NCBI GenBank assembly: GCA_016176405.1
Contig: JACOXG010000010.1
Coordinates: 33,078 to 97,077 of the forward strand
Direction: 5' to 3'
DNA from: Candidatus Daviesbacteria bacterium
Lineage (GTDB): Bacteria > Patescibacteriota > Microgenomatia > Daviesbacterales > UBA10151
DNA: 64,000 nt
Shown: positions 2,681 through 57,243 of the stretch, in pieces
How the letters are laid out: the number at the start of each line of letters is the position of its first letter
Numbering within the stretch: position 1 is the stretch's first letter
Notes under the pieces: generated by a model
Seen by the model: the letters and a program-made list of their open reading frames with translations, nothing else
The model's database searches: none
What the model was told of the DNA's origin: nothing
Position numbers and translations under genes: made by a program

Positions 2681-2692
2681 GGAGATCTAGAA

Positions 2693-5004: not shown

Positions 5005-5006
5005 TC

Positions 5007-14637: not shown

Positions 14638-14853
14638 GTGAGAGTCACTGATTTGGATTTAGAACAATTTATTGCACAGTGCAAGTCTTGTAAGGATACT
14701 TTTGTAATTGATTATGTTAAGAGATATAAATATTTTGAAAGTCAATTAGCTTTTACAGTAAGAGATGGTCAATTTAGACATAGATGTGGTGGATTGATTA
14801 GGATTTTTACAAGTGTCCCAATCTCTTTTGACATACAAACAAGCACTAACTAA
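14638..14853 (+). CDS. hypothetical protein
   Basis: ORF only. Confidence 0.25.
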   Translation: MRVTDLDLEQFIAQCKSCKDTFVIDYVKRYKYFESQLAFTVRDGQFRHRCGGLIRIFTSVPISFDIQTSTN

Positions 14854-21399: not shown

Positions 21400-22375
21400 T
21401 TGTGAATGTGGTTGTGGTATAGAGTGTAAGAAGAGATTTGTTCATAATCATCAGAAAAGGAATGTTCATTTATCTGTTGAACACAAAATAAAACTTAGGT
21501 TGGCTGGATTGGGAAGAAAACAGTCTAAAGAGACAATTGAGAAGAGAGTTGCTAAGATAAGAGGAATAGCATGTTCTGAAAATACTAAAAGCAAAATTAG
21601 CGAGACATTAAAGAAATATGAAATTACTAAGGTTCATCGGGATGCTCTTTCTAAGTCTAAATATGGGAGGGTATTGAGCGAAGAGCATAAAAATGCTATT
21701 AGATTAAATCGTCCAGATTTTTCAGGTAATAAACATCCGATGTATGGCAAGCATCACTCAGAATCTACTAGAATTAAAATGTCTTTGTCTCAAAAAGGAA
21801 AGAAACATTTATATGCATATAAGTTTTCAGAAAAAGATAAAGTTAAAATATCTATAGCTAGAAAAAGTAAGAAATTATCGGAGCATCATATTGAAGCACT
21901 GAAAAAGTCTTGGAATAACCCAGAAGTAGCAGCTAGAAGATTATTTAGTATTTTAAGAAGTAATTTTAATAGACCCAATAAATCAGAAACAAGGTTGTCT
22001 TTACTTTTATCAGATTTAAATACAGACTTTAAATATGTTGGCAACGGAAGTTTTATTATTGATCATAAAAATCCAGACTTTGTAAATAAAGAATCTAAGA
22101 AAATAATTGAGTTACAAGGTTGTTACTGGCATGGCTGCAAAATTTGTTTCCCAAATTCTAAGAAATCAAATAATTTTCCAGATCGTCAACAAATTTTTAA
22201 ACCTGCTGGATATGATTCAATAGAAATCTGGGAGCATGAATTGAAGAGTCCAGAAGTAGTAATTAGCAAAGTTAAGGATTTTAATAGTTTAGATGAAATT
22301 GAAAAGGCATGTAAAGAACAGGAAAGAATATCTTTAATGAGCATTGCTTTACATGACAGAAAAATTAAAGATTAA
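21392..22375 (+). CDS. homing endonuclease: zinc-finger N-terminus, NUMOD3 repeats, C-terminal Vsr/DUF559-like nuclease
   Basis: Repeated 'G..HSEETK.KIS.S.KGK'-like NUMOD3 units ('YGKHHSESTRIKMSLSQKGKK', 'SEEHKNAIRLN', 'SEHHIEALKKSW'). C-terminal 'PDF..IIELQGCYWHGC' resembles the Vsr core 'FVDGCFWHGH'. Confidence 0.6.
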   Translation: MNSCECGCGIECKKRFVHNHQKRNVHLSVEHKIKLRLAGLGRKQSKETIEKRVAKIRGIACSENTKSKISETLKKYEITKVHRDALSKSKYGRVLSEEHKNAIRLNRPDFSGNKHPMYGKHHSESTRIKMSLSQKGKKHLYAYKFSEKDKVKISIARKSKKLSEHHIEALKKSWNNPEVAARRLFSILRSNFNRPNKSETRLSLLLSDLNTDFKYVGNGSFIIDHKNPDFVNKESKKIIELQGCYWHGCKICFPNSKKSNNFPDRQQIFKPAGYDSIEIWEHELKSPEVVISKVKDFNSLDEIEKACKEQERISLMSIALHDRKIKD

Positions 22376-24392
22376 CTCGTCTGTGTTTGAGGTTGATCTA
22401 GCCTTTACTCCGTTTAAACAATTTGTCGGTCTCTCACAACACCAGGATTTAAAAGCTAATTCTGGTATGCTTTTTATTTATCCTAGTAGTAAGCAAAGAA
22501 TTTTTAATACGTTGCAAATGAAATTTCCTATTGATTTTGTCTGGATAATGCATGATGGAAGAATTTCTAGTATAACAGAAAACGTACCTCCAGAAAAACA
22601 GCAAGTGGAGTCTATTAGTCCAGCAAAATATATTTTAGAATTAAATGCTGGAGAAGTTAAAAAGAACAACATAAAAGTTGGAGATATGGTAGAGAACTTA
22701 CCCGATGATTCAGATATTGTACTTAGGAAAAGCAATGATTTCATTCATTTACAGGACTATAAATCAACTGGGAATTTAACCGAAGTAAAGACAGACCATC
22801 CATATCTTCGTAGGAAAAGGTCATATGGACTTAAGTTGCCGTCATTGTCTAAGGTTAATAGTTCATTAAGTCAAATATTCAAAGAATGGGTGGAAAAACA
22901 ACCTCGTCCAGGTCTAGTCCCAAAAAGTGGTAATTGGAAATATCCATATAGATGGATTAGACCAAGTAAGATTGAAGAAGTAAAAGATAGGTCAAATGAT
23001 AATTTTCAAAAAATAGACAGGTTTAGAAGTGCATTATCTAGAAGAAAGTCAATAGAATCTATGGACGATGAAGAGGCCATAGACAAGAATCTGGACACAT
23101 TTCATTTATTATTAGAAAACTTAGGGGCCTCGAAAAAAGAACTTGATGCTTCTGATGATTCATTACTTTCTTATTATTCATGGAAATTTGAGGAAAGATC
23201 ATTAGGGGCTGCCATGCTTAGATATGGTATTGCAGTTAGTTTAGGAAAGGATCCAATTGTAGAATTGAAGGACTATGGCATTTCTGATAGCATTATTAAA
23301 AAAATCGGGCAAGACAAAGATTATGTAAAGTTGACTACACAAATTCTACAAAAAATAACGTCATTATATATGAAAAATAAGTATGGTGATACAGTTCATT
23401 TATATAGAGGTATTCCAAAGGGAGAAAAAGTTAAGACTGTAAATGTATTATCCTACACGACAGACCCTACTGTAGCAGCTCGTTTTGCGGGGAAGGATGG
23501 GAGTATTATAGGGGAAGATATTTCAACTGATCAAATTTGGGCAGCAGATGAAATATTTTATCCAAGGGCAGAAAGTGAAGTTATTGTAGGTCTAAAAAAC
23601 AATTCAATAAATAAGCAATTAAACGGAACAGTGTATACATCAGAAGATGTATCAAGCTCAGTGGCTGATAAATGGGCCCCATTAAATCCGGATTGGAAGA
23701 ATTATGCGAAGAGAAAGACTTCCCCCAATAAGATTTTAGATGAATGGCTTGAAAAACAGAATGCAGACTTGGTCCCTAAAAAAGTCCCAATTCATTTGCA
23801 AACAGGTAAAGTTGTTTCGGGCATTAGGTGGGTTAAGCCAGAAAAATTTGAAGGAGAGACTCAGAAAGCTTTATCATTTGATGATGCTTCAGAGGCAAAT
23901 AAATGGAGAGACAAAATTAGAGGGTCTAAAATGGGGTCTGAAGAAAGAGCTACTTTACGAGATTATATAGGATTCGGAAATACGATGACAAATACATATT
24001 TACGACAAGGGTATAAAAAGAATCCATTACTTTTAAATAAAATCTCAGCCTTAGATTCTCTTATTCAAAAAACAACTATTCCTAATGATGTGATTGTTTA
24101 TAGAGGGACAGAGAATTTAGATTTATCCATTGGGGATATATTTATAGATAAAGGGTTTTTGTCTACTACATTAACATCTAATATGGCGCGTCTTTTTGTT
24201 ACAAATAAAGGTGCCTTATTTAAAATTCATGTAAAGGCAGGGACTCCCGTAACTTTAGGGCAAGACAAAGAGCTAGAATTGATTTTTGGTCGCGAATCAA
24301 AGTTTATAGTAAAAGATAAATATTCTCCTCCTCCGGACCCATATTTTCGAGGCAGATATACAATATATGAATTAGATATGGTGTCTTCTTAA
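22344..24392 (+). CDS. multidomain protein: DUF192 domain followed by two ADP-ribosyltransferase (R-S-E class) domains, each preceded by the conserved N-module
   Basis: DUF192 'GMLFIYP..FPIDFVWIMHDGRI'. ART1 'HLYRG..SYTT..ESEVIV'. ART2 'VYRG..LSTTL..ELELIF'. N-modules at about 22881-22980 and 23738-23850. Confidence 0.55.
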   Translation: MLYMTEKLKINSSVFEVDLAFTPFKQFVGLSQHQDLKANSGMLFIYPSSKQRIFNTLQMKFPIDFVWIMHDGRISSITENVPPEKQQVESISPAKYILELNAGEVKKNNIKVGDMVENLPDDSDIVLRKSNDFIHLQDYKSTGNLTEVKTDHPYLRRKRSYGLKLPSLSKVNSSLSQIFKEWVEKQPRPGLVPKSGNWKYPYRWIRPSKIEEVKDRSNDNFQKIDRFRSALSRRKSIESMDDEEAIDKNLDTFHLLLENLGASKKELDASDDSLLSYYSWKFEERSLGAAMLRYGIAVSLGKDPIVELKDYGISDSIIKKIGQDKDYVKLTTQILQKITSLYMKNKYGDTVHLYRGIPKGEKVKTVNVLSYTTDPTVAARFAGKDGSIIGEDISTDQIWAADEIFYPRAESEVIVGLKNNSINKQLNGTVYTSEDVSSSVADKWAPLNPDWKNYAKRKTSPNKILDEWLEKQNADLVPKKVPIHLQTGKVVSGIRWVKPEKFEGETQKALSFDDASEANKWRDKIRGSKMGSEERATLRDYIGFGNTMTNTYLRQGYKKNPLLLNKISALDSLIQKTTIPNDVIVYRGTENLDLSIGDIFIDKGFLSTTLTSNMARLFVTNKGALFKIHVKAGTPVTLGQDKELELIFGRESKFIVKDKYSPPPDPYFRGRYTIYELDMVSS

Positions 24393-24393
24393 A

Positions 24394-25353
24394 ATGCAAG
24401 ATCGATACATTTGGAATAAGGGTGATATAGTTCTTTTGGATAAAGAATCTGAATTTGAAAAACAATTTAATATTCCATGTCCTGTAGGTTATCATGAACA
24501 TGCAAATATCCAAGGCTGCCATCCAATGTCTCAGCACCATAGGTTTGAGCATAGAGCCGTAGGGGCAGGCTCTGGAAAAGAGGCAGCAGAATATACATTC
24601 CAAAGACCAGAATCAGAAGAAGAGGAAGAGCAATTAACAGATATTACAATACCTGCAATAGCAAATGCACATGGTATTAGTTTAAGTGCATTGTGGGAAA
24701 ATCTTAAAAATCTATATGGGAAGAAATTAGAAGAGCAAAAATATCAAGAGCAGAAATATACACAAGAAGGAAAGCTGCTCACTTATTCTCCAATTCATCT
24801 AACCCCCAGTCAAATATACACAGCTCATTTTTTGGCAGAGAAAATAAAGAGACGCCAACTTTCAAGGCCAGGAAAAGTAGTATCGATAAAGCCAGCAGCC
24901 GTGGCTAAAGTAATGTTAAAGCAATTCCCATGGATCCAAAAATCTTTTGATTTAGAAATTAGAAAATCATTAGGGGATGACATTAAGCTATCTGTAAAAG
25001 CAATTATAGAGGACGAAGCAGGAAGATTGTTGATATTGAAAGATAGATATTCTGATTTTTGGGACCTTCCGGGTGGGCATGTAGCAGATGGAGAGTCATT
25101 ACATGATGCTCTTGTTAGAGAAGTAAAAGAGGAAACAAATTTAGATGTTATTGGTGCAGAAGAATTATTTACTAGAGAATTAACATTGGGGAAAGAGACA
25201 AAACCAGTTGTATTTTATAAAACCGGTGCGGAAGGAATAGTTCATTTATCTAAAGAGCATAATAATTTTAGGTGGATAAATCAAGAGCATTTTGACGAGT
25301 ATAATCTTGGAGTTTTCTCTGGCATAATTCATGAGTACTTTACTACAAAATAA
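24394..25353 (+). CDS. Nudix hydrolase
   Basis: Nudix box 'GGHVADGESLHDALVREVKEETNL'. Confidence 0.7.
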   Translation: MQDRYIWNKGDIVLLDKESEFEKQFNIPCPVGYHEHANIQGCHPMSQHHRFEHRAVGAGSGKEAAEYTFQRPESEEEEEQLTDITIPAIANAHGISLSALWENLKNLYGKKLEEQKYQEQKYTQEGKLLTYSPIHLTPSQIYTAHFLAEKIKRRQLSRPGKVVSIKPAAVAKVMLKQFPWIQKSFDLEIRKSLGDDIKLSVKAIIEDEAGRLLILKDRYSDFWDLPGGHVADGESLHDALVREVKEETNLDVIGAEELFTRELTLGKETKPVVFYKTGAEGIVHLSKEHNNFRWINQEHFDEYNLGVFSGIIHEYFTTK

Positions 25354-26218
25354 GCTAGCCGATTGGCTTGAAAAACAAGCTATTGATAGATCTAGACTTG
25401 TGCCAAAAAAAGTTCCTATCCATTTACAAACAGGTAGGACGATAGAAGGAATAAGATGGATCAACCCTGATGCTGAAAGTACTAATGAATTAACTGATTT
25501 GGCTAGTAAGGCTAATACTTTAAAATATGACAAGGGAGATCGTGATGCAGAAGATACGATTATGGATTGGGCGGAGAAAAATAACGTTAATCCAGAAAAA
25601 ATGATTCAAGCTTGGACTTTGATAACTTCAACTTGGGGAAAGGGGGACCCAAAGGCTACACAAGGAGGCAAAGAATACGTAGCAATTCGTTCAGCGGCTT
25701 ATTCACTATTAAATATAGATGGGTATCAAGATGAAAAGAAATATTTTGTTGAGACAAGAAAAGTACAAGAAAAAATATTTAATAAAGAGTGGGAATTAGG
25801 TAAATCTATAGCTAAATATTTTATTCCATTATATATAATATCCCAAAAAGCTCTTAATAAATCTATGGCCCCAGATAAGACAATTACAGTATATAGAGGT
25901 GTTGGGGGAAAATTTGCTGTAGATATCATTAATTCAATAGAAAGGGGAGAAAAAGAATTTGAAATTCCAAATAGCGGGATTTCTAGCTGGGCTTTAAATA
26001 GAGAGACAGCCTCTATGTATGCTTCATCTTCTGGATTTCCACAAGAGAAAGCACGAAACGGAGTAGTTTTATCAAAAAAAATTTTGGTAAAAGATATTTT
26101 TTTGTACCCAGAAGGTATTTATAAGCATTCTTCTTCTGAACCAGATGAAGTCTTAGTCTTTGGGGCTGCTGTCAATAAATTTTCTAAGGATGAAATTAGC
26201 CAGGAATTAACATGGTAA
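25331..26218 (+). CDS. ADP-ribosyltransferase (R-S-E class) with N-terminal conserved module
   Basis: 'ADWLEKQ..LVPKKVPIHLQTGRTIEGIRWINP' module. ART motifs 'VYRG', 'ISSW', 'EPDEVLV'. Confidence 0.5.
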   Translation: MSTLLQNKLADWLEKQAIDRSRLVPKKVPIHLQTGRTIEGIRWINPDAESTNELTDLASKANTLKYDKGDRDAEDTIMDWAEKNNVNPEKMIQAWTLITSTWGKGDPKATQGGKEYVAIRSAAYSLLNIDGYQDEKKYFVETRKVQEKIFNKEWELGKSIAKYFIPLYIISQKALNKSMAPDKTITVYRGVGGKFAVDIINSIERGEKEFEIPNSGISSWALNRETASMYASSSGFPQEKARNGVVLSKKILVKDIFLYPEGIYKHSSSEPDEVLVFGAAVNKFSKDEISQELTW

Positions 26219-29200
26219 TTTTTTCTAATATTGATTTTGACTTAGAAAATAGTTTTTGGATTAATCAAAAAAAGTTCAATTTAATTAAAAAAATATCTAT
26301 TTGCAAAGAATGCAACAGTGACTGTGATTGTATAAAAGGACAATCATGTGAGTGCAAACATAACTGCATGTGCCCCAATATTTTAGTAGAAGATAGTCTA
26401 GATGATGATTTTATATTAGACAAAACCTTTTTTCAAAATGAATTTCTAGAAAAAGCTGTAATTTCGACTCCTACTGATAAAGAAGGGAAGTTTGATGCTA
26501 CTAAAGTCCCAATAGGCGCGAGTGTTTGGATAACTATTGGGAATCCTGAGTCTCCTTTACATGGTCGTCATGTCATGATAACAAAAAGACCTGATGGTCT
26601 TATGGCAATTACGGGTGGGGCGGGTGTTGACAAAGAAACAGCTGCACGCAGACATCTTATTTTAACTGGAACTCCTAGAAAAACAAAGAGAGATGATGAA
26701 TTAGAAGAAATAGTTGATGAGGCAAAGAAATATAATGAGCCCCTATTAGTAGAGAGAAAGCAGTTACAGAGAGAAGCAATAGAAGAAATCAAAGTTGCTG
26801 CTGATGATATGAAAAAAGCATTTGGGCTTTCAGATATGAATAAGAAAACAATGCTAGAAAAGAAAGATGAAATACAAAATTATGTTGAATCAATCCTTGG
26901 GGAGGATGAAAAGGGACAAGCAAAACGTCTTACAGACACAGTGGCAAGGCATCTAGTATTAGCAGAACGCAAAATTTCAGAGCATATACAAAGAGACAGA
27001 GAAGTAATATTTGCTAAAATAGGAAAGAGAATTACTAGATTTTCAGAAGAAGAATTACCAAAGGCGCTGGAAGAAGTAAATGATTCTATTCAAAACTATT
27101 CTTCTTCTGTTATAAATTTGCCTGATTTAAGTGATTTAAAAGGTCTTTCTTCCCTACAGCAAGAGTTAGTCATTGCTAATTACTTTGATAAACAGGCAAA
27201 TGATTTCTTTAGCGCAGAAAAAATAGACCATATTGAAAAGAAAGATGTCCCACAGATTACTTTGGGAGAAACGGTAAAGCCGTTAGAGATTAGATCTTCC
27301 GAAGAATTACATAATGCTATAGATAAAGTAAAGCATTATTGGGAGACAAGATCAAAGGCAGAAGAAATAACATCTAGCCTAAAAAGAATTCCGTTAAAGC
27401 CGTCAAGTAGCAGCACTATTGCTGAACTACGAAATGACTTAAAAGGCATGAATATAGAAATGGATTTCGATGAAATAGTAGATAAGGCTGAACAGAATTT
27501 AGTTAGATGGCAAACTAATAATTCAGCCTTAGCTTTTTATGATGCAGTGGGAGACTATTGGAATGATGATACAAGCCTGTCAGAGCAATTAACAAATAAA
27601 GATAAATTTGATTCTACAATGCAGTTCCATATAAGCTCTGGGGCTGCTACAGCATTAGCTTCATTGTCAAAAGAATATCTTGGGACAAGACTTGATACAT
27701 TGCGATTAATAAATACCGCTAATTTGGAGTCAGCTGTTGCAATTACTGCGCTTGAAATCAGGCAGAAGTTCGCTAAAGATCCAAAAGCATATGATGAAGC
27801 ACTAGTAAAAATAAAAGACTTTAATGCTAAGAATCAGATAGACACTGAGAAAATTGCTCTAGATAGACATGCTACGTTAAAAACACAGTATGATGAGATT
27901 CAAAAACAAAAGTCTACTGGAGAGCTATTAGATAAGATTAGAATTTCAAACTTAGAGTTGGAGAATATAGTAGAGCAAAAGAGAAATCTAGGCTCTGCAT
28001 TAGGTTCATTGCAAGCATCAGCAACATTCTATGATTATTTAACTAAATTCAAGACAGCTAAAGATGATATTGTTCAGATAAATGTTGGTAATAATATAAA
28101 TGATGCCAATGATATGGTAGATAGGCTAAGACTTCGCAAAGGTTATGAAGTGGATACATCTGATCCAGACAACATTAGAATAAAGGCTGGTTTGTCTTCA
28201 TTTGAAAAGTTCGTTAATGAAGAGAAGGATATAAAGTCCAAGGCTGACCAATATGATAAGCTAAAGACAAGCATGGATGGAATTATAGAAGATGAAGATG
28301 GGAGGTTAGTAGCAGATAAATATGATGTTCCTGGGTGGAAAAATGAATACATAGATGAACAAGGCAATACCCAGCAATATAAATGGAGAGTAGAGCAAAG
28401 GAATGATATAAATTGGCTCCTTGATGCTACTAGAAGCACTCAGGAAAATCCTTTAGGGGAGGGTGGGGGATTAGTCACACGAGTAGTAGGCGCAGGAAAG
28501 ACAAATACTGCATTGGGGTTCTTTGCCAACAAGATAAATGATAATAAAGACTATAAAGGATTAGTAGTAGTTCCAAAAGGTAGAGCGCAACAATGGGTAG
28601 ACGAGGCAAAGAAGTTTACTGACTTGAATATTGAGTTAATTCCAGATGGTACAGCTAAAGACAGGGTAGATGAAATATTGTCTAAAAGTAAGCCAGGAAC
28701 TATATATGTCACAGGACATAGAGAAGCAGCCCGTTCTCATTTAACATTAGAAGCTTTACAAACCAGCAAAGAATTTTCGGATAAGAAATTCCATGGATTA
28801 GTAATTGATGAGCCACAAGAATTGCAAGCAAGGGGTCAAAGTGGAAATATAGGAGAACTTGGCAAAAGACTAATGCATCTACCAATGCAGCATAGAGTAG
28901 GTTTAACAGCAACTCCAGCTAGAAGAAATCCACTTGAGGTATATGATTTAATAAAGTGGACAAGCGGGGCAAAAGATATAGGAGATAAAGCATCATTCAA
29001 GAGAGTATTCTCAGGATTTGGTAGTGGGACAAATGCCCAAGATACTGCTATTAGAAAATTATATTTCAATACAATTCAGCCATATATTAGTGGTGATAGG
29101 ATAACAACCCCTAATTTTAAGGTAAAACAAGAATCCATAAATTTTAATCGTACTTCCACTCAAATTGCTAAACAAAAAGAAATAGAGTCTCAAAGTGCCG

Positions 29201-29868
29201 CATATATAGAAAGGCGAAAGAACGAAATTGTAAGAGAAGTGCAAGCAAATCCAGCACACCCTCTTAGGAGACTAATAAATTGGCAATTTTCAGCCCCTAG
29301 AAAAGCCGTAGAAATGGCAAGAACTGAAGTAGAGAACATGCATAGGGATAATATGGATGATGGGGATTATAGGAATAATTCAAAGCTTATGAAGTTCAAG
29401 GAAAGCTTTGAGAAAGACCCAAAGAAGAAGCGTGTTCTTTTTATAGATTCTAGAACACAGCGTGTATCTTTGATGGAGATGTTTAAGGATATTGGGTTAA
29501 AGCCTAACCAAATCAAAAATATTGCTGCTACAACGACAGCAATTACGGGTGAAGAAATGGCAAATAGAGTAAAAGATTTTAAAACAAACAAAGATATTCC
29601 AATTATCTTGATTGATACTAAAAGTTCTAGCGGGTATAATTTGCAAGCAGGGGACGTTCTTGATGTGCTTGGGACCCCCCAGGATGCGAGCGTGTATCTC
29701 CAAGCTCAGGGGAGACTGGCTAGAATGCCTAGAAAGGGAGATGTAGAAATAGCTACATATAAGTATAATGATAATCCTATCGAGCAAGCTAAATGGAATC
29801 AACTTGAAGCCCAACTAAAAATTTTAAGAGCAAGCTCTCCAGGATTATTCCCAACACAAAATGAATAA
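26212..29868 (+). CDS. large (1218 aa) multidomain protein: Cys-rich N-terminus, coiled-coil middle, C-terminal SF2 helicase-like ATPase
   Basis: Walker A 'VVGAGKTNTALG' and Walker B 'LVIDEPQELQ'. Helicase-C-like 'ILIDTKSSSGYNLQAGDVLD'. N-terminal 'CKECNSDCDCIKGQSCECKHNCMC'. Confidence 0.5.
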   Translation: MVIFSNIDFDLENSFWINQKKFNLIKKISICKECNSDCDCIKGQSCECKHNCMCPNILVEDSLDDDFILDKTFFQNEFLEKAVISTPTDKEGKFDATKVPIGASVWITIGNPESPLHGRHVMITKRPDGLMAITGGAGVDKETAARRHLILTGTPRKTKRDDELEEIVDEAKKYNEPLLVERKQLQREAIEEIKVAADDMKKAFGLSDMNKKTMLEKKDEIQNYVESILGEDEKGQAKRLTDTVARHLVLAERKISEHIQRDREVIFAKIGKRITRFSEEELPKALEEVNDSIQNYSSSVINLPDLSDLKGLSSLQQELVIANYFDKQANDFFSAEKIDHIEKKDVPQITLGETVKPLEIRSSEELHNAIDKVKHYWETRSKAEEITSSLKRIPLKPSSSSTIAELRNDLKGMNIEMDFDEIVDKAEQNLVRWQTNNSALAFYDAVGDYWNDDTSLSEQLTNKDKFDSTMQFHISSGAATALASLSKEYLGTRLDTLRLINTANLESAVAITALEIRQKFAKDPKAYDEALVKIKDFNAKNQIDTEKIALDRHATLKTQYDEIQKQKSTGELLDKIRISNLELENIVEQKRNLGSALGSLQASATFYDYLTKFKTAKDDIVQINVGNNINDANDMVDRLRLRKGYEVDTSDPDNIRIKAGLSSFEKFVNEEKDIKSKADQYDKLKTSMDGIIEDEDGRLVADKYDVPGWKNEYIDEQGNTQQYKWRVEQRNDINWLLDATRSTQENPLGEGGGLVTRVVGAGKTNTALGFFANKINDNKDYKGLVVVPKGRAQQWVDEAKKFTDLNIELIPDGTAKDRVDEILSKSKPGTIYVTGHREAARSHLTLEALQTSKEFSDKKFHGLVIDEPQELQARGQSGNIGELGKRLMHLPMQHRVGLTATPARRNPLEVYDLIKWTSGAKDIGDKASFKRVFSGFGSGTNAQDTAIRKLYFNTIQPYISGDRITTPNFKVKQESINFNRTSTQIAKQKEIESQSAAYIERRKNEIVREVQANPAHPLRRLINWQFSAPRKAVEMARTEVENMHRDNMDDGDYRNNSKLMKFKESFEKDPKKKRVLFIDSRTQRVSLMEMFKDIGLKPNQIKNIAATTTAITGEEMANRVKDFKTNKDIPIILIDTKSSSGYNLQAGDVLDVLGTPQDASVYLQAQGRLARMPRKGDVEIATYKYNDNPIEQAKWNQLEAQLKILRASSPGLFPTQNE

Positions 29869-30619
29869 GTTAGATTTATTAAAGGACTTTTTAGAGAAAC
29901 AACAGCTTGGGCTTGTCCCAAAGAAAGTTCCTGTTCACTTACAAACTGGTAAGGTTACTGAGGCAATCAGATGGGTAAAACCTCAGCACGATACAGATTT
30001 ACGAGAAATTGACAGACTGAAGAAGATTTCAGATAAGCATGAATTAATGTATGAGTTAGAAAAAGCATCAAATAATGTTTTGCAAGCTTTTATGCATGAT
30101 AATCGCGACATTATAAGACATGTTGTGGCGGCATATATTTTGAAAGATTCTGTAGGAAAAGTTTTTGACGGGGATATTATTTTTCATGGAAATTTAATAG
30201 GGGAAGATATTGACATTCCTTATGAATATAATATATCTGACAAAAGTCTAAATTTGGAGTATGTCAAAGTACATAAAGCTCTTACTAGGCAGATTTTAGA
30301 TATTGCTTTTCCAGACACAAATATATTTGTGTTATATCGTGGGACAAGCGAAATAAAAGATATAGACAAATTAGCTAATGGTGATAGAATCAAAATTACC
30401 CAGAATCCGATTAGTAGCTGGACATTAAAGAAAAGTGTGGCCCGAAACTTTGCTTTGGAGGCTGGGGCTAACGGAAAATTGCTTAAAACAATTGTAAATA
30501 AAGATGAAATCTGGTCAACATTTGCGACACATGCCTATAAGGGCAATGAAACAGAAATACTATTAATAAACAGAAAGGGAGGTAGGGAAGTAGAGAATAT
30601 AGGTATTTACAGTGAATAA
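29861..30619 (+). CDS. ADP-ribosyltransferase (R-S-E class) with N-terminal conserved module
   Basis: 'KDFLEKQQLGLVPKKVPVHLQTGKVTEAIRWVKP' module. ART motifs 'LYRG', 'ISSW', 'ETEILL'. Confidence 0.5.
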   Translation: MNKLDLLKDFLEKQQLGLVPKKVPVHLQTGKVTEAIRWVKPQHDTDLREIDRLKKISDKHELMYELEKASNNVLQAFMHDNRDIIRHVVAAYILKDSVGKVFDGDIIFHGNLIGEDIDIPYEYNISDKSLNLEYVKVHKALTRQILDIAFPDTNIFVLYRGTSEIKDIDKLANGDRIKITQNPISSWTLKKSVARNFALEAGANGKLLKTIVNKDEIWSTFATHAYKGNETEILLINRKGGREVENIGIYSE

Positions 30620-30920
30620 GCAACTCATCAATTTAGACAATTCAATAGAGAATTCAGACTGGATAAAAAAGATTAAAGATAATATCGGTCTTGAAAAGCA
30701 ATCAGAAAAATCGTCCCCTAGTGAACTTGATGCATTAAGTATGTCAATAGATGTATCTACAAGGAAATATCTATTGGAATTGCTTGACTATAAAAAGCAG
30801 ATTAAAGAACAACTAAAGAATTCTGATAATGATGTATTGTATCAGCGACAGTTAAAGGACGCATTGGAAATCATAGATAATAATATAAATCGCATAAGGT
30901 TTGATGGAATACTAGATTAA
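30612..30920 (+). CDS. hypothetical protein
   Basis: ORF only. Confidence 0.3.
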   Translation: MNKQLINLDNSIENSDWIKKIKDNIGLEKQSEKSSPSELDALSMSIDVSTRKYLLELLDYKKQIKEQLKNSDNDVLYQRQLKDALEIIDNNINRIRFDGILD

Positions 30921-31447
30921 TGCCAGTCAATATTGAAAAACAGCAAGGCTTAAAGATTCCACACAAGGTATGGGTGTATCCAAAGACTGGCGGGAAGCCG
31001 TTTATGACCACAAGGTGGAGGAATATTCCTGTAAATTATTATACTGGAGATCTTAAATTCGTTGATAGCAAAGAATATACAGGAGACTTACAGAATGTAT
31101 ATAAGCAATGGATAAAGTTTCTGCAAGGCTACCAAGGGCAATATAGAAAAATGCTTCCAGTAATTGCACTGCAAGAAATATTATCCAAAAATAGCAATGG
31201 TCTATTAGCTGTGTCTCATAATAGAATAGTAGGAATAGCGACATATACTAAAGACAATCAGATTTCTATAATAAGTTCTTCCCTATTTGAGATGGATACC
31301 CCAATAGAATCATTTCTGGTTAGTTCTTTGAAACAAGAATTGAAAAATAGAAATATATTAGTTGATGAGCCAGATGCTATGTCAGATTCAGAGAATAATT
31401 TTGATGATTTTGTGGATTCTGTGCATTTTGTAGATGGAAATGAATAA
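30920..31447 (+). CDS. hypothetical protein carrying a diverged copy of the N-module
   Basis: 'NIEKQQGLKIPHKVWVYPKTGGKPFMTTRWRNIP'. Confidence 0.35.
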   Translation: MPVNIEKQQGLKIPHKVWVYPKTGGKPFMTTRWRNIPVNYYTGDLKFVDSKEYTGDLQNVYKQWIKFLQGYQGQYRKMLPVIALQEILSKNSNGLLAVSHNRIVGIATYTKDNQISIISSSLFEMDTPIESFLVSSLKQELKNRNILVDEPDAMSDSENNFDDFVDSVHFVDGNE

Positions 31448-33617
31448 ACTAGATTTATTAAATGATTTTCTAGAAAAGGCTCGTGTCTATCTTCAGCCTG
31501 GAGAAAAGCCTCCTGAGAATGTTCAAGTTTATCAAGGAAAGAGAGGGGGCAAGTACTATCTTTCTAGGACTGGGCTTGCTGAGAAATGGTACTCAAAGCC
31601 AAAACAAAAGTTTGGCGCATTAGCAGAACAAGATTATCCTACACTAGAGTCTAGGAAACAAGTGTTATTAACATTTGTTCCGCCAATGTATAGAGATAAG
31701 AAAGTTACTTTTAATCCAAAATTATTAAAATCTTCAAATCCTAAAATGCTGTCTGCTGCCAAAGAATGGCTGGTGAAGTGGGTGGCAAAAGACGGTAAAG
31801 AGCAGGTAGCCTATTCACAGAATCACCAAGAAAAGAGTGACATAGAAAAATGGAATCGAATGAAAGTAATGTCTAAAAAGCTACCTTTGATTAGGAAGCT
31901 ATATAATAGTCTATTAGATAGCAAAGAGGAGTCAGATAGAGCTATTGGGGCTATTATTTCATTGTTAGATATTACAGGCTTTAGAATAGGAAAAGAGCAA
32001 TATGCTGAAGAGCATGGTACTTATGGCATTTCTTCCCTTCGCTGCAGCCAAGTTAGATTATTGCCAGACAGCAAAATAGAACTTAATTTCATTGGCAAGA
32101 AAGGAGTCGAGTTCAAAGGAGAAAGATTTATAGTCCCAAATAAAGTTTATAATTTCTTGTCTAGATGCAAATTAAGCTCAAAGAGAATGGATAAGATATT
32201 TCCTGTAGATGAAGGCGATGTATATAAAGTATTATCAGACTTTGGTGTGAGCGCTAAGGATTTCAGGACATATCATGCCAATAGACTATTATTTTCCGAA
32301 TTGATTTCCGGCCCCCAATATAAAGGCAATGAAATAAAGAGAGAAAATAGAGTAAAAGAAATAATAAAGGAAATAGCAGAAAGATTGGGGCATAATTGGA
32401 CTACGTCAAGAAAAGCCTATATGAATCCGTTTATTGTCAGAGCATATTTAGATAAGGAAGATTTATCCGAATTTGGGGCTATTTATAAAGAGGACATCGA
32501 TTTAGAAAAGTCTTATGCTTCTGATAAATGCATGGAATGTAAGATGTCTCCTGTTATTGAACTATTGTGGGCAGAAGGGATGGCTCATGCATGGTTTTGT
32601 GATAAGCACTATAAAGAATTCAAAAAAGAGCACTCAGATGATATATCTTCAGAGCGGGAATTAAAATGGGGAGTTGCCTCAAAACATTGGAAGAACGGGG
32701 TGCCAACAAAAGAGGATGCATTAAAACTAGAAAAAAATGATGCTTATCCCTTAAATCCTGATTCAGAAGAGATGTATAAATGGATTGATGATAATTTAAT
32801 TAAATCAGGATTAGTAATTGGAGGAAAGCAGCCACAAGGAGCAAAGACAATAGGGAGACAAATAGAGCAGAGATTGTATTCTACATTGCAAGTAGCTATT
32901 GACAAGTATTTGTCTAGTTTAACTGGAACTGAGCCAAAAACAGAGGTAATTGAAGGACTGATAGAAGTACTGAAAAAGTGGAAAGAAGTAAATGGCCCAG
33001 TAGCAGATGAAGCATTTGAGAAATTATTTAAGGCAGGATTCCAAGCTGGGACAATGTCAGCTGGAAGAATGGGCACATATGATAAGTTAGCAATGGATAT
33101 AATAAAGAATGGAAAATATAGAATAGGAGAGAGAATAGTCTTATTCGCAGATGATGTAGTAAAGGACTTTGCCAAGATAATTACTAAAGCATATACACCA
33201 GAGGGAATATTTTCATTACAGTCATTAGTCAAGGAGATGAATGAAGCTGTACCAAGTAAGAGAAGCGATTTGGAAAGAATAAGCAGGACTGAAACTTCGA
33301 ATATTAGCAATCTAGGCCGAATTTTTGGCTGGGGAGATGACAAGTATAAATATTTTTATAATTATATCTGGAACAGTAGTCCCGATACAAGACGTAGGGA
33401 AATGAAAAAGATGCGCAGTGAATGGTCGCCTTTGACATTCGATGAAGCTCTGTATCTTTGGACACATAATAAACAGCAATTATCTAATGGGAAGTGGCAA
33501 AATGGAAATATAAATTGTCGTTGTAGTTTGTCTCGAACGCCAAGAGAGGATGAGTATAAAGGAAATAGATTTGAAGGACAGCCAATTTTTGAAAAGACTT
33601 TGGACTTTAGTTTCTAA
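31434..33617 (+). CDS. type IB DNA topoisomerase domain fused to a putative Mu F/SPP1 gp7-like head-morphogenesis region; N-terminal conserved module
   Basis: TopIB blocks: 'GFRIGKEQY' (~ 'LRAGNEKE'), 'GISSLRCSQVRL' (~ 'GCCSLRVEHI'), 'FRTYHAN' (~ 'FRTYNAS'), and catalytic-Tyr block 'TSRKAYMNPFI' (~ 'TSKLNYLDPRI'). The C-terminal 'ISRTETSNISN' recalls the Mu F family RTE motif. N-terminus 'MNKLDLLNDFLEKA'. Confidence 0.65.
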   Translation: MEMNKLDLLNDFLEKARVYLQPGEKPPENVQVYQGKRGGKYYLSRTGLAEKWYSKPKQKFGALAEQDYPTLESRKQVLLTFVPPMYRDKKVTFNPKLLKSSNPKMLSAAKEWLVKWVAKDGKEQVAYSQNHQEKSDIEKWNRMKVMSKKLPLIRKLYNSLLDSKEESDRAIGAIISLLDITGFRIGKEQYAEEHGTYGISSLRCSQVRLLPDSKIELNFIGKKGVEFKGERFIVPNKVYNFLSRCKLSSKRMDKIFPVDEGDVYKVLSDFGVSAKDFRTYHANRLLFSELISGPQYKGNEIKRENRVKEIIKEIAERLGHNWTTSRKAYMNPFIVRAYLDKEDLSEFGAIYKEDIDLEKSYASDKCMECKMSPVIELLWAEGMAHAWFCDKHYKEFKKEHSDDISSERELKWGVASKHWKNGVPTKEDALKLEKNDAYPLNPDSEEMYKWIDDNLIKSGLVIGGKQPQGAKTIGRQIEQRLYSTLQVAIDKYLSSLTGTEPKTEVIEGLIEVLKKWKEVNGPVADEAFEKLFKAGFQAGTMSAGRMGTYDKLAMDIIKNGKYRIGERIVLFADDVVKDFAKIITKAYTPEGIFSLQSLVKEMNEAVPSKRSDLERISRTETSNISNLGRIFGWGDDKYKYFYNYIWNSSPDTRRREMKKMRSEWSPLTFDEALYLWTHNKQQLSNGKWQNGNINCRCSLSRTPREDEYKGNRFEGQPIFEKTLDFSF

Positions 33618-35587: not shown

Positions 35588-36895
35588 ATGCCAATTAGTA
35601 GATCTCAGTTAAACCAGTTAATTTACAAAGCTATCGTGCAAGGTATCCAGCGCAATGGAGACAGAATTTTTAATCAGTCCCAGCAAACTTCTGAATGTTT
35701 TGTACCTGTGGACACGGGCATGTTAAAAAAGTCGGGATATGTGAAGCAACTTTCTAACGGCGTAGAAATTGGCTATATTGCCCCATATGCATGTATTCCA
35801 TACTTGAAACGACAAAAAATAAGGCTTTCTAATGGGGCCCAATTGAATTTAACCAAGCTTAGAATTGGAGATCTAATTGATGATGGATTTGGAAATTCAA
35901 GAGAAGTTATAGCTATTAAAAAGCAACCAAAACAAAAATATAGAATTTTAGAAATTGTTACTGAATCTGGAAAAAAGATTTTGGTAACTGATAATCATAA
36001 AATTTCTATGGGAGGTGATGATTTCAGAGAAGCAAAAAATTTGATTATTGGAGACTCTATTGGTATTGATGATAAATGGGTTAATTCTGTAATAGAGTGT
36101 AAAGTCTGTCATAAAAAAATGAAAGCTATTTCTATTACACATTGTAAAACTCATAGTTTAACTCAAAATGACTACAAGAAATTATATGGGCCTCTAAAAA
36201 ATTGGAAAAGAATTGGCTATAGATCTTGGAATAAGGGACTTAATAAGTTTTCTGATGCTAGAATAGCAAAATATGCTGAAAAATTAATCGAAAATACATC
36301 ATTTAAAAAACCTGAAGTAAAAGAAAAAATGAAGCTAAATCATTGGAGTAAAAGAGGAGGTAAGTCCTGGAATATTGTTAAACGAGTTTATGTTAAATGT
36401 GGGAGTAAAGAATGTAAAAATCTAGTCAAAATATTACTAACTCAAGAAGAATATTATAGGAAACATAAAACATTTTGTTCAAAACTATGCGAATCTAATT
36501 GGAGAGCAATTAGATATTCTGGAGAAGGAAATCCAAGATTTGGAACAAAATGTTCAGCAAAAGGTACTTCTAGGGGCGGCTTTAGAGAAGATCTAGGACA
36601 TTATGTTAGAAGTAGCTGGGAAGCTAATTTTGCTAGGCTGTTAAAATATTCTAATATATCATATTATTATGAAGCTAAACGATTTGACTTGAAAGATGGA
36701 AGAACTTATTGCCCAGATTTTTTAATTCCGTCTCTTAATTGTTATTTAGAACTTAAGGGATATGACGGAGATAATAGATTTGAAAAAGCCAAACAAATTT
36801 ATAGTCAATTGAATTTTATTAAGATTGATGGAAATGTATATAAAGATTTAGAAACTATGTTTAGTAATGTTATTCCATTGTGGGAATATAGATGA
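35588..36895 (+). CDS. N-extein (HK97 gp10-like 'VPVDTGMLKKS' protein) plus intein N-terminal region (blocks A, B) with embedded PD-(D/E)xK/Vsr-like homing-endonuclease domain
   Basis: Intein block A 'CIPYL' begins at Cys69 (nt 35792). Block B is 'VTDNHKI'. Endonuclease-like 'PDFLIPSLNCYLELKGYDGDN'. Confidence 0.55.
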   Translation: MPISRSQLNQLIYKAIVQGIQRNGDRIFNQSQQTSECFVPVDTGMLKKSGYVKQLSNGVEIGYIAPYACIPYLKRQKIRLSNGAQLNLTKLRIGDLIDDGFGNSREVIAIKKQPKQKYRILEIVTESGKKILVTDNHKISMGGDDFREAKNLIIGDSIGIDDKWVNSVIECKVCHKKMKAISITHCKTHSLTQNDYKKLYGPLKNWKRIGYRSWNKGLNKFSDARIAKYAEKLIENTSFKKPEVKEKMKLNHWSKRGGKSWNIVKRVYVKCGSKECKNLVKILLTQEEYYRKHKTFCSKLCESNWRAIRYSGEGNPRFGTKCSAKGTSRGGFREDLGHYVRSSWEANFARLLKYSNISYYYEAKRFDLKDGRTYCPDFLIPSLNCYLELKGYDGDNRFEKAKQIYSQLNFIKIDGNVYKDLETMFSNVIPLWEYR

Positions 36896-37323
36896 TCACT
36901 GAAAAGATTGTTTCAATCAGAGAATTAGTCCCAAAAAGAGCTACTAAAATTCCAGAAGTTTTTGATATACAAACTTCTGGAGGCGGGACTTTTATTCTGA
37001 ATGGTATTATTGTTCATAATTCAGATGTCGAATTTGGAAAACCTGTACGTCCAATTACGGAAACCCAGGAAGTTTTCGTTAGACGATTTAAGCGTAAAGA
37101 TGGAGTTATTGTAAAAGCTCATACAAAGAAATACATTAATAAAAGACTTATTGGCTTTAGACCAAAATTAAGCAAGTTTGAGAGAGGTGAAAAGATATTT
37201 AGAGTAATAAGTGAAGAGAAAGAGCAAACTGGACAGCACTATTTGGGTCGGGCGTTCCAAAAAGAAATTAAAGAGCTCCCAAAGGACATTGAATTTTTTT
37301 TACGGGAATTAGAGAGGAAATAA
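36892..37323 (+). CDS. intein C-terminal fragment (blocks F/G, 43 aa) plus C-extein
   Basis: 'VFDIQTSGGGTFILNGIIVHN|S'. Overlaps the previous ORF by ATGA and is in a different frame. Confidence 0.5.
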   Translation: MITEKIVSIRELVPKRATKIPEVFDIQTSGGGTFILNGIIVHNSDVEFGKPVRPITETQEVFVRRFKRKDGVIVKAHTKKYINKRLIGFRPKLSKFERGEKIFRVISEEKEQTGQHYLGRAFQKEIKELPKDIEFFLRELERK

Positions 37324-38513: not shown

Positions 38514-40403
38514 ATGATAAATGAATTCACATTTCTTCGAGTATATAAAGACATAGCATATCAAAAAGCATCAGAAACTGATGTTAATATGTTATACAAT
38601 GATTTGTCTAGTGATATTGGAGACAAGCCAGAATTCAATAAGTGGTTTGAGAATAAATATCCGATAAAGCTAGATAAGATTATTTCTATTGATGCTATTG
38701 CTCATGAGATTCATGCTAATGGAGATTCCGTATTACAGAAAATTTATCCTGGGGCTGACATAGATATATTTAAGTCGGAACTCGATAGACTGGCAGGTAT
38801 GGAAAATACAAATGATGTCAGAAAACTAAATAGGGGATTCTTTACAACTTTACTTAGTGACGGAGACTTGATATTTCTTGAAAAGCAACAAGTCGGAAGA
38901 ACGATAAAGGATGATATATTCCCAGCAATAGAAGAATATAAGAAACTATATGATGCTGGAATAGGGTCTAAGGGAGAATTGCTGACATTAGATAGATATT
39001 ATAGGGGGCAAAATAAGAAATACCATGATGATGTAATTAGCAAGGGGCTTGATAAAGACGAGAATGAGCCAATGGTTATTGGTGGCCCCGCATCATTAGA
39101 AATGGTTGATAAGGAAGGACATCTAATCACAGCTAAAGCTCTTGATGCAGCATTTTATAAGTTTATGAATCAATTTAGAACTCGTGATATAAACTTAGCC
39201 CATACGGATGTTCAAATTGGCTGGCCATTGCCTGCATATATAACAAAAAATGGTAGCGTATTCCAGTCTGGCGTAGATGATAAGGGGCTATGGGTTATAT
39301 CAGAATTAAGGGACGACAATAAGATAGCAAATAGGGTTGCAGAGCAAATAAAAGCAGGAGTATTTAAATCATATTCTATAGCTGGGAGCGCATCAAAAAC
39401 ACAGAATGTGCAGAAAGGGGCACAGAATTATACGCAAGTAGATGAACTTTCCCTACAAGAAATTACAATTTGTTTACCTTTCGGGTCAAAAATTTGGACT
39501 TTGGTAGGGCTAAAAAATATTGAAGACATAAAAGTCGGCGAATTTGTACTTACCCATAAAAGTAGATTTAAGCCTGTAGTTAAGACCTTTAAAAGATTTA
39601 CAGATGAAGAAATAGTAGTCTTAAAAACAGATTTTGGTAATGTTTTAAAGGCTACTAAGGAGCATCCGGTTCTAGTCAGAGAAGAGTTTGATGGACAGGT
39701 TAATAAAAATTGGGTTCCAATAAAGAATTTAATCCCAAGTAATGAAGTGTATGTGTATGATAGTTTGCATAAAAATTCGGTCTTTACAGAAGTTTGGATT
39801 AAAGAAATTAGTGTAGAAAATTATAAAGGGTATGTGTATAATTTAGCAGTAGAAGAAGATAATTCATATACTACGGAGGCTTGTGTAGTGCATAATTGCG
39901 AAAAAGGAATGAATCAAGGAGCACATTTTGATATATTGAAGGGAGAGAAAATGGCCTTAGATGAAATATTTAAAGGAGATTGGGACAAATATGCCGATTA
40001 TGGCAGTGGATATTATTACAAGTTTATAAAAGAAAATCCAGAGTTCGACACTAAAGAATTTCAAGAATATGTAATAGTACATAATAAAGCTGACAGAGAC
40101 TCTGGAGAATTGGGAGATATAGCCAATTTTGAAATTGATAGATTAGCCAATGAATTTGGTTCTAAAAACTTACAAAAGGGTATAGATATTACAAAGGAGT
40201 ATAAGGATATGAATGCATTTGATGCTCTACGAAAGTTCTTGGAAAAGGATGCTGATGATAGACAAAAGGCTCATAGAGAGCTTCTAGACAAGTATGGTTT
40301 TCCAGAAGATGGTGAATACAAAAATGTTCGGGAAGATAAGGATGATGAGATTTATCATTATGAACCGTGGACCGCTAATACCTCTGGGAGAATTAAAGAA
40401 TAA
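38514..40403 (+). CDS. HK97-type prohead protease (U35/S78-like) interrupted by a mini-intein
   Basis: Protease core 'GGPASLEMVDKEGHLITAKALD..LAHTDVQIGWP..KGLWVISEL..KAGVFKSYSIAG'. The intein runs 39471..39896. Confidence 0.6.
   Translation: MINEFTFLRVYKDIAYQKASETDVNMLYNDLSSDIGDKPEFNKWFENKYPIKLDKIISIDAIAHEIHANGDSVLQKIYPGADIDIFKSELDRLAGMENTNDVRKLNRGFFTTLLSDGDLIFLEKQQVGRTIKDDIFPAIEEYKKLYDAGIGSKGELLTLDRYYRGQNKKYHDDVISKGLDKDENEPMVIGGPASLEMVDKEGHLITAKALDAAFYKFMNQFRTRDINLAHTDVQIGWPLPAYITKNGSVFQSGVDDKGLWVISELRDDNKIANRVAEQIKAGVFKSYSIAGSASKTQNVQKGAQNYTQVDELSLQEITICLPFGSKIWTLVGLKNIEDIKVGEFVLTHKSRFKPVVKTFKRFTDEEIVVLKTDFGNVLKATKEHPVLVREEFDGQVNKNWVPIKNLIPSNEVYVYDSLHKNSVFTEVWIKEISVENYKGYVYNLAVEEDNSYTTEACVVHNCEKGMNQGAHFDILKGEKMALDEIFKGDWDKYADYGSGYYYKFIKENPEFDTKEFQEYVIVHNKADRDSGELGDIANFEIDRLANEFGSKNLQKGIDITKEYKDMNAFDALRKFLEKDADDRQKAHRELLDKYGFPEDGEYKNVREDKDDEIYHYEPWTANTSGRIKE
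39471..39896 (+). other. mini-intein (142 aa, no endonuclease domain) inside the prohead protease gene
   Basis: Block A 'CLPFG', block B 'TKEH', blocks F/G 'VYNLAVEEDNSYTTEACVVHN' followed by Cys+1. Length 426 nt, in frame. Confidence 0.65.
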
Positions 40404-46186: not shown

Positions 46187-46260
46187 TGTGGATTAGTATA
46201 ATGGTAGTACATCAGGTTTTGACCCTGAGAATTTTGGTTCGAATCCAGAATCCACAGCCA
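46187..46260 (+). tRNA. tRNA-Gln (anticodon UUG), CCA encoded
   Basis: Hand-folded cloverleaf: 7-bp acceptor stem TGTGGAT/ATCCACA with U1-A72, discriminator G73, U8, D-loop GG, anticodon loop 'TTTTGAC' (UUG), T-arm TTTGG-TTCGAAT-CCAGA, 3' CCA. 74 nt. Confidence 0.8.
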
Positions 46261-56919: not shown

Positions 56920-57243
56920 ATGAGAAAAGGAATTCAAATGAAAGAAGTCGTGGAGGATGAGACCATGGAAGAGGTTGGGCTGCTTGTAACAACAGCATAC
57001 AAAGGGGTATTTTTTGGGTATGGCATCTTTTCGGATGCTGCCCAGATTACATTGAAGCGTGCCAGAATGTGTATCTATTGGCCAACAGGAGAAAAGGGAG
57101 TAATGGGATTAGCACTCGTAGGGCCGCTCCCAGGGGCTAAAATTGGGCCTGCTGTGCCATCCTTGATTTTGCGGGATGTAACTGCTGTCGTTATATGTAC
57201 GTCTAGTGCTATTGAGAAGTGGGAGAAGCCACCGTTATGGTAA
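56920..57243 (+). CDS. hypothetical protein
   Basis: ORF only. Confidence 0.3.
   Translation: MRKGIQMKEVVEDETMEEVGLLVTTAYKGVFFGYGIFSDAAQITLKRARMCIYWPTGEKGVMGLALVGPLPGAKIGPAVPSLILRDVTAVVICTSSAIEKWEKPPLW

Follow-up and report, generated by a model that had tools for sequence, protein, structure and literature searches.

A gene in a 64,000-nucleotide stretch of contig JACOXG010000010.1 (positions 33,078 to 97,077; assembly GCA_016176405.1, Candidatus Daviesbacteria bacterium) joins a type IB DNA topoisomerase (TopIB) to a C-terminal domain related to the Mu F/SPP1 gp7 family of minor capsid proteins. We refer to this stretch, 64 kb out of a contig of ~110 kb, as the window. We propose that the TopIB-Mu F gene encodes a virion-targeted, cofactor-independent DNA swivelase that acts on DNA as infection begins, with the incoming genome as its most probable substrate, and we give this reading a probability of roughly 55%. 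The evidence comes from the two domains, from relatives in which TopIB is coupled to other head or effector proteins, and from the position of the gene in a phage head module.

Translation of the open reading frame (ORF) starts more likely at the ATG at 31440 (MNKLDLL..., 725 amino acids, aa) than at 31434, because this start matches that of the identical 725-aa NCBI entry MBI2020148.1 and the first 27 nt are near-identical to the start of the ORF at 29861. The NCBI entry is annotated as 'hypothetical protein' and belongs to a Candidatus Daviesbacteria genome bin, on a contig of 109,932 bp. The identical 727-aa ORF, together with the same neighbours, was assembled from SRR12113430, SRR12113383 and SRR12113384. 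Since the same ORF was obtained from three sequencing runs, the fusion is not an assembly artefact; a chimera created by assembly or frameshift is excluded by this result and by a conserved module inside the linker.

The topoisomerase domain is apparently intact

The Pfam model Topoisom_I (PF01028) matched residues 130-326 far above chance (E=2e-31, 109.5 bits, gathering cutoff 23.7), in agreement with an earlier note, made from the sequence alone, that had described a TopIB catalytic domain here. In a phmmer search against the PDB, the protein matched type IB topoisomerases only, among them the variola (6e-13) and Deinococcus radiodurans (9e-13) enzymes as well as those of Leishmania, vaccinia and an archaeon. 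R184, K222, R278, H320 and Y329 align with the catalytic pentad of variola TopIB, R130, K167, R223, H265 and Y274. The R-K-R-H-Y pentad, for which the earlier note had suggested an alignment, thus lines up with the variola enzyme. The motifs quoted there were also all recovered: GFRIGKEQY (residues 182-190), GISSLRCSQVRL (198-209), FRTYHAN (277-283), TSRKAYMNPFI (324-334) and, in the C-terminal part, ISRTETS (616-622).

The full-length AlphaFold (AF2) model, based on an alignment of 21 sequences, has predicted local distance difference test (pLDDT) values of 80-94 at residues ~60-350. All 22 PDB fold matches of the model at E<=1e-3 were TopIB. The best was variola TopIB, with a target-normalised template modelling (TM) score of 0.63-0.64 over 267-283 aligned columns to chains of 312-314 residues, a match that covers both the N-terminal and the catalytic domain. 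Deinococcus TopIB came second with a TM score of 0.57-0.60. The Pfam model of the bacterial N-terminal domain, Top1B_N_bact (PF21338), gave no score on the target protein. Judged by sequence and model, the target contains a complete, two-domain TopIB that is apparently catalytically intact. The enzyme is of the short poxvirus/bacterial type and not of the long eukaryotic type; of the label 'eukaryote/poxvirus-type' given previously, only the poxvirus half can be kept.

Across 48 aligned long multidomain TopIB relatives, the catalytic residues R, K, R and Y do not vary. This argues that the domain has been kept for catalysis, which appears from these sequences to be under selection. The fourth catalytic position is His in 39 relatives and Asn in 51, and the clade of the target has His. 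Both residues have reportedly been seen at this position in active enzymes.

Two other identities were considered and rejected. An integrase/tyrosine recombinase (or protelomerase) reading of the catalytic domain does not hold, since Pfam gives Topoisom_I only and the PDB sequence and fold matches were TopIB only. The idea of a protelomerase with hairpin telomeres, raised by a weak TelK_muzzle match (E=0.036) in the next gene, was dropped because that gene encodes a phrog_284 exonuclease (E=5.7e-46).

The chemistry of the domain allows for a role at DNA ends. Poxvirus TopIB carries out strand transfer, and vaccinia TopIB is trapped on suicide substrates. A TopIB located at the first-ejected end could cleave near the terminus, become covalently trapped and shield the end from exonucleases, and then ligate it to a 5'-OH end, circularising the genome without host ligase. 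The neighbouring Mu F domain, associated with DNA ends, and the exonuclease gene directly downstream would suit such a function. However, terminase cuts normally leave a 5'-phosphate, and such ends are unsuitable acceptors. The pentamer YCCTT, the target of poxvirus and bacterial TopIB, does not help either, since its frequency in the window (307 observed versus 362 +/- 17 expected) is uninformative on target sites and its strand bias arises because the coding strand is purine-rich. We consider end joining or end capping the least probable of all explanations weighed here.

The C-terminal part resembles Mu F and SPP1 gp7

Phage_Mu_F (PF04233) matched the whole protein with 24.2 bits and its C-terminal part alone with 26.3 bits, at significant E-values (1.4e-5 to 6e-5). 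The ten closest homologues of residues 430-727 are 38-58% identical and 290-410 aa long; eight of these ten carry a precomputed PF04233 assignment, and two are NUDIX-MuF fusions. All 11 sequences of the C-terminal family had a Phage_Mu_F match at E<=0.01, the best being 2.6e-9, and the R-T-E motif (R618-T619-E620) is invariant across the family. The AlphaFold model of the domain (pLDDT 76.5) found 86 matches at E<=1e-3 in BFVD, which holds predicted viral structures. The named top matches, with query-normalised TM scores (TMq) of 0.4-0.6, are almost all minor capsid proteins, phage head morphogenesis domains or head morphogenesis proteins. A fusion of MuF with an ADP-ribosyltransferase (ART) from Xanthomonas phage Xp12 and a zeta-toxin fusion, both known MuF-effector fusions, are also among the matches. 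The same model found nothing at E<=1e-3 in a fold search of the PDB (best 0.3).

Taken together, sequence and model support a divergent Mu F/gp7-family domain. Its membership follows from its homologues and its fold, whereas its own score against the curated cutoffs would not place it in the family. The family matches, the invariant RTE and the viral fold matches are in line with the head-morphogenesis (Mu F-like) part noted earlier. The earlier description of ~390 aa after TopIB with an RTE motif was correct as to the motif; the stretch has to be divided into a linker of ~100 aa and a Mu F-like domain of ~270 aa.

A short module delimits effector domains

The module at the start of the protein spans the first ~45 residues, and its helix (LLNDFLEKA) is amphipathic. 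A second variant, LVPKKVPVHLQTGKxxxxIRW, aligns in register with the PPENVQVYQGKRGGKYY stretch, and the consensus forms consist of a helix 'xxFLEK' followed by either 'LVPKKVPVHLQTGKxxxxIRW' or 'PPxxVxVxxGKRGGxYY'. The sharing of this module with neighbouring genes, already claimed from the sequence, is borne out: the window holds five copies, one inside the DUF192-ART protein (aa 463-500) and four at the N-termini of the ORFs at 25331, 29861, 30920 and 31434. A local hidden Markov model (HMM) also detected it in sequences outside its training set, with three copies each in P0046 and P0112 and two each in P0081, P0151, P0024 and P0138, and in ART/DRAT-like genes of a related phage contig (L001). 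In P0002 it sits between TopIB and a zincin peptidase. In P0024 it lies on both sides of TopIB, before a C-terminal ART-like domain that was read from the sequence, Pfam reporting Topoisom_I only. Since the module stands between domains in these and other proteins, it behaves as a delimiter of effector domains. No Pfam family covers it, and its alignment found nothing at E<=1 in an index of 5.8 billion proteins, the motif being too short for such a search. The internal proteins of phage T4 carry a short N-terminal targeting sequence that is cut after Glu by the prohead protease, and by comparison with them the module may be a signal for capsid targeting, for processing by a protease, or for both.

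Between TopIB and Mu F of the target, neither the module nor a recognisable cleavage delimiter was found. The linker (residues ~346-463) was modelled with low confidence. Its residues 358-419 are 52% identical to part of P0009, a multidomain protein that has DNA ligase and N6-adenine methyltransferase domains and is otherwise unrelated to the target, and the Cys/His segment of the linker would, from this similarity, be a small domain moving between multidomain phage proteins. A knuckle-like motif of a different kind, 'C-x-P-G-x-H-x-H-x(3-5)-C-H' (CPVGYHEHANIQGCHP), was observed at the N-terminus of the NUDIX protein (window 24394-24540) and upstream of TopIB in the relatives P0025 (aa 43-57) and P0028 (aa 29-45 and 84-100). 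It may represent a further small metal-binding module of the effector set.

Relatives couple TopIB to head and effector proteins

The nearest relative, P0002, is 51% identical over residues 1-346 and derives from 0.1-um-filtered groundwater. Its architecture is TopIB - module - zincin peptidase, and the following gene encodes a separate Mu F protein (47% identity to residues 445-715). In the vicinity of both genes are ART genes and a ClpP-type protease. The adjacent TopIB and Mu F genes at this locus and the single gene of the window therefore form a gene fusion/fission pair linking TopIB and Mu F. In more distant proteins, Pfam architectures place TopIB at the C-terminus of portal proteins, as portal-2H phosphoesterase-TopIB in P0011, portal-TopIB in P0012 and portal-DUF5661-InPase-TopIB in P0013. 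Behind the latter lie genes for Mu F-like, scaffold, cement and major capsid proteins; the genes next to P0011 have no recognisable head-gene annotation.

An exhaustive search with residues 1-350 returned 3,906 relatives at E<=1e-3, and ~60 of the best 150 have lengths of 450-2,732 aa. The domains beside TopIB in the 48 long relatives are ParB_N (6), LPD1 (5), 2H phosphoesterase (4), ART-PolyVal (3), InPase (2), S-adenosylmethionine (SAM) lyase (2), LPD3 (1), ddrB-ParB (1) and NUDIX (1). These are hallmark domains of polyvalent proteins.

The TopIB at the portal C-terminus in P0011-P0013 would also suit a swivel that resides in the capsid. In that case TopIB, tethered to the portal by Mu F or by direct fusion, would relieve torsion during DNA entry or exit and never be delivered to the host. 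A cofactor-free enzyme could do so, and the target has no delimiter at which its TopIB might be released from Mu F. In addition, gp7 of SPP1 reportedly anchors the DNA and controls its exit, and is said not to be detectably co-ejected in vitro. However, the relatives pair TopIB with host-directed or anti-defence domains (ART, SAM lyase, InPase, NUDIX, ParB), and the delimiter modules and zincin peptidase that flank it there fit effectors that are released and injected. A clamp closing round densely packed DNA is also sterically doubtful. We therefore regard a purely capsid-resident role as unlikely.

Among 50,697 deposited phage records the target query found one match. A more typical phage TopIB used as probe found ~20, almost all in jumbo phages and at 24-28% identity, which agrees with the earlier statement that TopIB is rare in phages. 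Free-standing TopIB had already been noted for phiRSL1, Lu11, PaBG and NCTB, and the free genes of phiRSL1, Lu11, PaBG and other jumbo phages are classed with functions in replication and recombination (Iyer et al., 2021; PMC7824862). The target could accordingly be an ordinary replication/recombination topoisomerase whose fusion to Mu F is a recent accident of gene order without a role in the virion, and the direct fusion is indeed a singleton. Several findings speak against this. The adjacency of TopIB and Mu F is kept in a relative that is only 47-51% identical, there are independent portal-TopIB fusions, one of them in a demonstrable head module, TopIB bears the same N-terminal module as the neighbouring effectors, and it co-occurs repeatedly with polyvalent-protein domains. 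A purely replicative role is thus very improbable in our view.

The gene lies in a phage head module behind an effector island

All genes of the window are on the plus strand, and the GC skew is uniformly positive (0.18-0.30). The Mu F-like gene is located downstream of the portal gene within the head module, with the large terminase subunit (TerL), portal and prohead protease genes on the same strand (Table 1). An effector island of ~10 kb (22344-31447) stands between portal and Mu F, which usually form a pair; TopIB closes the series and is joined to Mu F itself. The island looks like a polyvalent protein that has been split into separate genes. Two small ORFs of 102 and 175 aa precede the TopIB-Mu F gene.

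Table 1. Features of the TopIB-Mu F gene and its surroundings (positions in the window).
Feature	Position	Strand	Basis or remarks
Terminase large subunit	14813..16438	+	phrog_38 E=1.9e-28
Portal protein	19480..21399	+	phrog_18178 E=3.5e-47; Pfam Phage_portal 1.1e-5, below cutoff; expected docking partner of a Mu F/gp7-type protein
NUMOD3/Vsr homing endonuclease	21347..22375	+	Directly after portal
DUF192 - module - ADP-ribosyltransferase	22344..24392	+	First island gene; DUF192 6e-24; ADPrib_exo_Tox 1.2e-15
Five module copies	23730-23850, 25349-25470, 29873-29990, 30920-31030, 31440-31571		Each directly upstream of an effector-type domain
NUDIX hydrolase	24394..25353	+	NUDIX fused straight to the target's Mu F subfamily in two relatives
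295-aa protein	25331..26218	+	Starts with shared module
1218-aa protein	26212..29868	+	C-terminal SNF2/DEAD-type helicase, Cys-rich N-terminus
252-aa protein	29861..30619	+	Starts with shared module; weak ART (DRAT)-like similarity
175-aa protein	30920..31447	+	Starts with module variant; overlaps TopIB gene start
Whole TopIB-Mu F ORF	31434..33617	+	727 aa incl. stop codon; uninterrupted; order module - TopIB - Cys/His linker - Mu F-like
N-terminal ~40-aa module	31440..31571	+	Helix 'LLNDFLEKA' and hairpin-like 'PPENVQVYQGKRGGKYY'; model with helix 5-15 and short strands, low to moderate pLDDT
TopIB N-terminal (DNA-binding) domain, residues ~60-125	31611..31808	+	pLDDT 82-91; variola TopIB alignment spans both domains
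TopIB catalytic domain, residues ~126-345	31809..32468	+	PF01028 E=2e-31; PDB alignments; residue mapping
Catalytic codons R184, K222, R278, H320	31983-31985, 32097-32099, 32265-32267, 32391-32393	+	Alignment to PDB sequences
Tyr329 codon, predicted active-site nucleophile	32418..32420	+	Aligned with variola/vaccinia Tyr274; Tyr invariant in 48 long relatives
Cys/His module C366, C369, C389, H392 (C-x2-C-x19-C-x2-H)	32505..32690	+	In linker; pLDDT <50; no Pfam family
Mu F/SPP1 gp7-type minor capsid (head morphogenesis) domain, residues ~445-715	32766..33578	+	Pfam core 596-699; invariant R618-T619-E620
Metallophosphatase-type exonuclease	33632-34978	+	Directly downstream of TopIB-Mu F; phrog_284 E=5.7e-46; TelK_muzzle E=0.036 probably spurious
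Prohead protease (S78/XkdF-type) with Hint/intein insertion	38514..40403	+	Candidate processor of capsid-internal proteins

The neighbours of the gene are of host-modifying effector types (ART, SNF2, NUDIX), and MuF-ART and MuF-zeta-toxin proteins are among the fold matches of the target; MuF-toxin fusions as such are widespread (Jamet et al., 2017; PMC5576092). One could hence think of a weapon, either an injected TopIB that relaxes or damages the host chromosome by collapse of negative supercoiling or trapped covalent complexes and so shuts off the host, or a MuF-type polymorphic toxin directed against competitors. MuF toxins, however, consist of an N-terminal MuF and a C-terminal toxin and come with immunity genes. 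In the target the two parts stand in the opposite order, and the downstream gene encodes the phrog_284 exonuclease and is not an obvious immunity gene. Moreover, one to few enzyme molecules would be weak against gyrase acting on a whole chromosome. We judge a host-directed weapon to be quite improbable.

The remaining genes of the window show several features of their own. Intein/Hint signatures occur also in the ORF 35588..36895, and the next ORF (36892..37323) looks like its continuation. A Glu/Gln-tRNA-synthetase gene (41663-42604, 313 aa, Pfam tRNA-synt_1c 1e-88) encodes the catalytic domain only, and a tRNA-Gln(UUG) gene (46187-46260) follows ~3.6 kb downstream. Some auxiliary genes are unusual in a phage of ~110 kb, namely a Cpn60/GroEL-type chaperonin (48155-49726), an aldehyde dehydrogenase (11415-12902) and a ribonucleotide reductase with a TSCPD domain (16398-18671). 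Thymidylate synthase, dCMP deaminase, Dam methylase and RecA are encoded at 679-5942. At 57219-57914 a Gly/Tyr-rich low-complexity ORF with GYGYGYGDGSGYG repeats is overlapped in another frame by an Ala/Met-rich ORF. The window is of phage origin throughout (TerL, portal, prohead protease), though deposited in a Candidatus Daviesbacteria bin. As the Daviesbacteria label comes from metagenomic binning, the contig is either a phage of the Daviesbacteria lineage or a binning artefact.

A virion-targeted swivelase as proposed function

In the function that we favor, a virion-targeted swivelase, the Mu F domain would attach the protein to the procapsid at its portal vertex, in the manner of SPP1 gp7, which binds the portal and is present in 1-2 copies per capsid (Jamet et al., 2017; PMC5576092). 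This would place a few TopIB molecules inside, beside the DNA end that leaves first. There the enzyme would close around duplex DNA and work as a nick-and-swivel relaxase from the moment the DNA moves, and it could do so immediately because TopIB requires neither ATP nor Mg2+. The likeliest target would be the incoming phage genome in the host, from which torsional stress would be removed. Relaxation would then set the topology for early transcription, replication or circularisation. MuF and portal fusions have been interpreted as capsid-delivered effectors (Iyer et al., 2017; PMC5512222), and by function we would place the TopIB-Mu F protein among the polyvalent early effectors that phages deliver from the capsid.

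Several points weigh against the swivelase proposal. Packaging, ejection, activity and target of the protein are all inferred from its architecture and context. The Mu F scores of the target stay below the curated cutoffs, with 24-26 versus 29.6 bits for PF04233 and 19 versus 39.65 for TIGR01641 (phageSPP1_gp7). The direct TopIB-Mu F fusion is unique among 168 retrieved proteins, and its domain order, TopIB (60-345) followed by Mu F (445-715), is the reverse of that in the described MuF toxins. In cultured jumbo phages TopIB stands alone among genes of metabolism, which leaves some probability for a purely replicative role. Finally, by analogy with SPP1 gp7, which reportedly was not detectably co-ejected in vitro, a Mu F-tethered enzyme may stay in the capsid.

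Full-text searches of the literature turned up no paper that describes a fusion of a phage TopIB with a virion protein. A topoisomerase is mentioned as cargo domain neither in the main text of the study on polyvalent proteins (Iyer et al., 2017; PMC5512222) nor in that on MuF toxins (Jamet et al., 2017; PMC5576092). The TopIB-Mu F architecture may nevertheless be visible in domain databases, although undiscussed. A broader idea, which we advance tentatively and hold to be somewhat less probable than the proposal for this gene, is that tailed phages of uncultivated bacteria package active TopIB by means of Mu F, portal or polyvalent fusions. With the enzyme delivered together with the genome, this would amount to a widespread and unrecognised 'virion swivelase' strategy paralleling the core TopIB of poxviruses.

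If this is true, these phage enzymes could be part of a gene pool from which poxviruses, mimivirus and bacteria exchanged their short TopIB. The activities known of capsid-delivered phage proteins are modification of host proteins, blocking of restriction and transcription of DNA, and a delivered enzyme that alters DNA topology would extend them by a new functional class. Such an enzyme would also be the first known in a prokaryotic virus to correspond to the virion topoisomerase of poxviruses, and the question why viruses carry a swivelase into the cell would become testable in simpler systems. Because the TopIB domain is small, cofactor-free and recurrent in many architectures (Mu F, portal, polyvalent), its biochemistry, including a site specificity of the kind used in TOPO cloning, would be quick to study with recombinant protein. 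Effectors that are targeted to the capsid or processed may be marked by the ~40-aa delimiter module in these phages, and the module would then help to recognise further cargo.

Comparison with known systems

The TopIB of poxviruses (vaccinia, variola) resembles the target in its short, two-domain architecture, as the best structural match and in the R-K-R-H-Y pentad, including His at the fourth position. It is reportedly packaged in the virion core and supports early transcription, a role like the one we propose for the target. In contrast to the target, it is a free-standing protein of 314 aa with ~20% identity, whereas the target is fused to a capsid-incorporation domain, is preceded by a phage-specific module and belongs to a tailed phage. 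Deinococcus radiodurans TopIB (PDB 2f4q/3m4a) is of the same family and size, and Asn, the bacterial residue at the fourth position, is present in many of the target's relatives. Bacterial TopIB genes, however, are stand-alone and chromosomal, the clade of the target has His, and the bacterial N-terminal model does not score on it. The TopIB of jumbo phages (phiRSL1 ORF108, Lu11, PaBG, NCTB) belongs to the same superfamily, but is encoded by separate genes among those for nucleotide metabolism and replication, without Mu F or portal fusion and outside a head module (Iyer et al., 2021; PMC7824862).

With SPP1 gp7 and Mu gpF the target shares the Phage_Mu_F and TIGR01641 matches (below cutoff), the RTE motif, the predicted fold and a gene position downstream of the portal. 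These proteins are single-domain or have C-terminal additions, whereas the target has an enzymatic extension of 440 aa at its N-terminus and follows the portal only after ~10 kb of effector genes. The definition of MuF polymorphic toxins, an N-terminal MuF with a C-terminal toxin (Jamet et al., 2017; PMC5576092), is not fitted by the target. Downstream of TopIB-Mu F no immunity-like gene was recognised, such genes being hard to recognise.

The closest parallel in design is offered by the polyvalent proteins (Iyer et al., 2017; PMC5512222). As in these, an enzyme is joined to a virion-incorporation domain, disparate domains (TopIB, Cys/His module and Mu F) are combined in one ORF within a head module, and the proposed principle of delivery from the capsid at the very onset of infection would be shared. 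ART-PolyVal, LPD1/3, ddrB-ParB, SNF2, InPase, 2H and zincin peptidase domains, all of this kind, are found in neighbours or relatives of the target. Unlike in typical polyvalent proteins, the set is largely split into separate genes in this phage, several of them headed by the same ~40-aa module. Nevertheless, the target fits the concept of a polyvalent, capsid-delivered effector.

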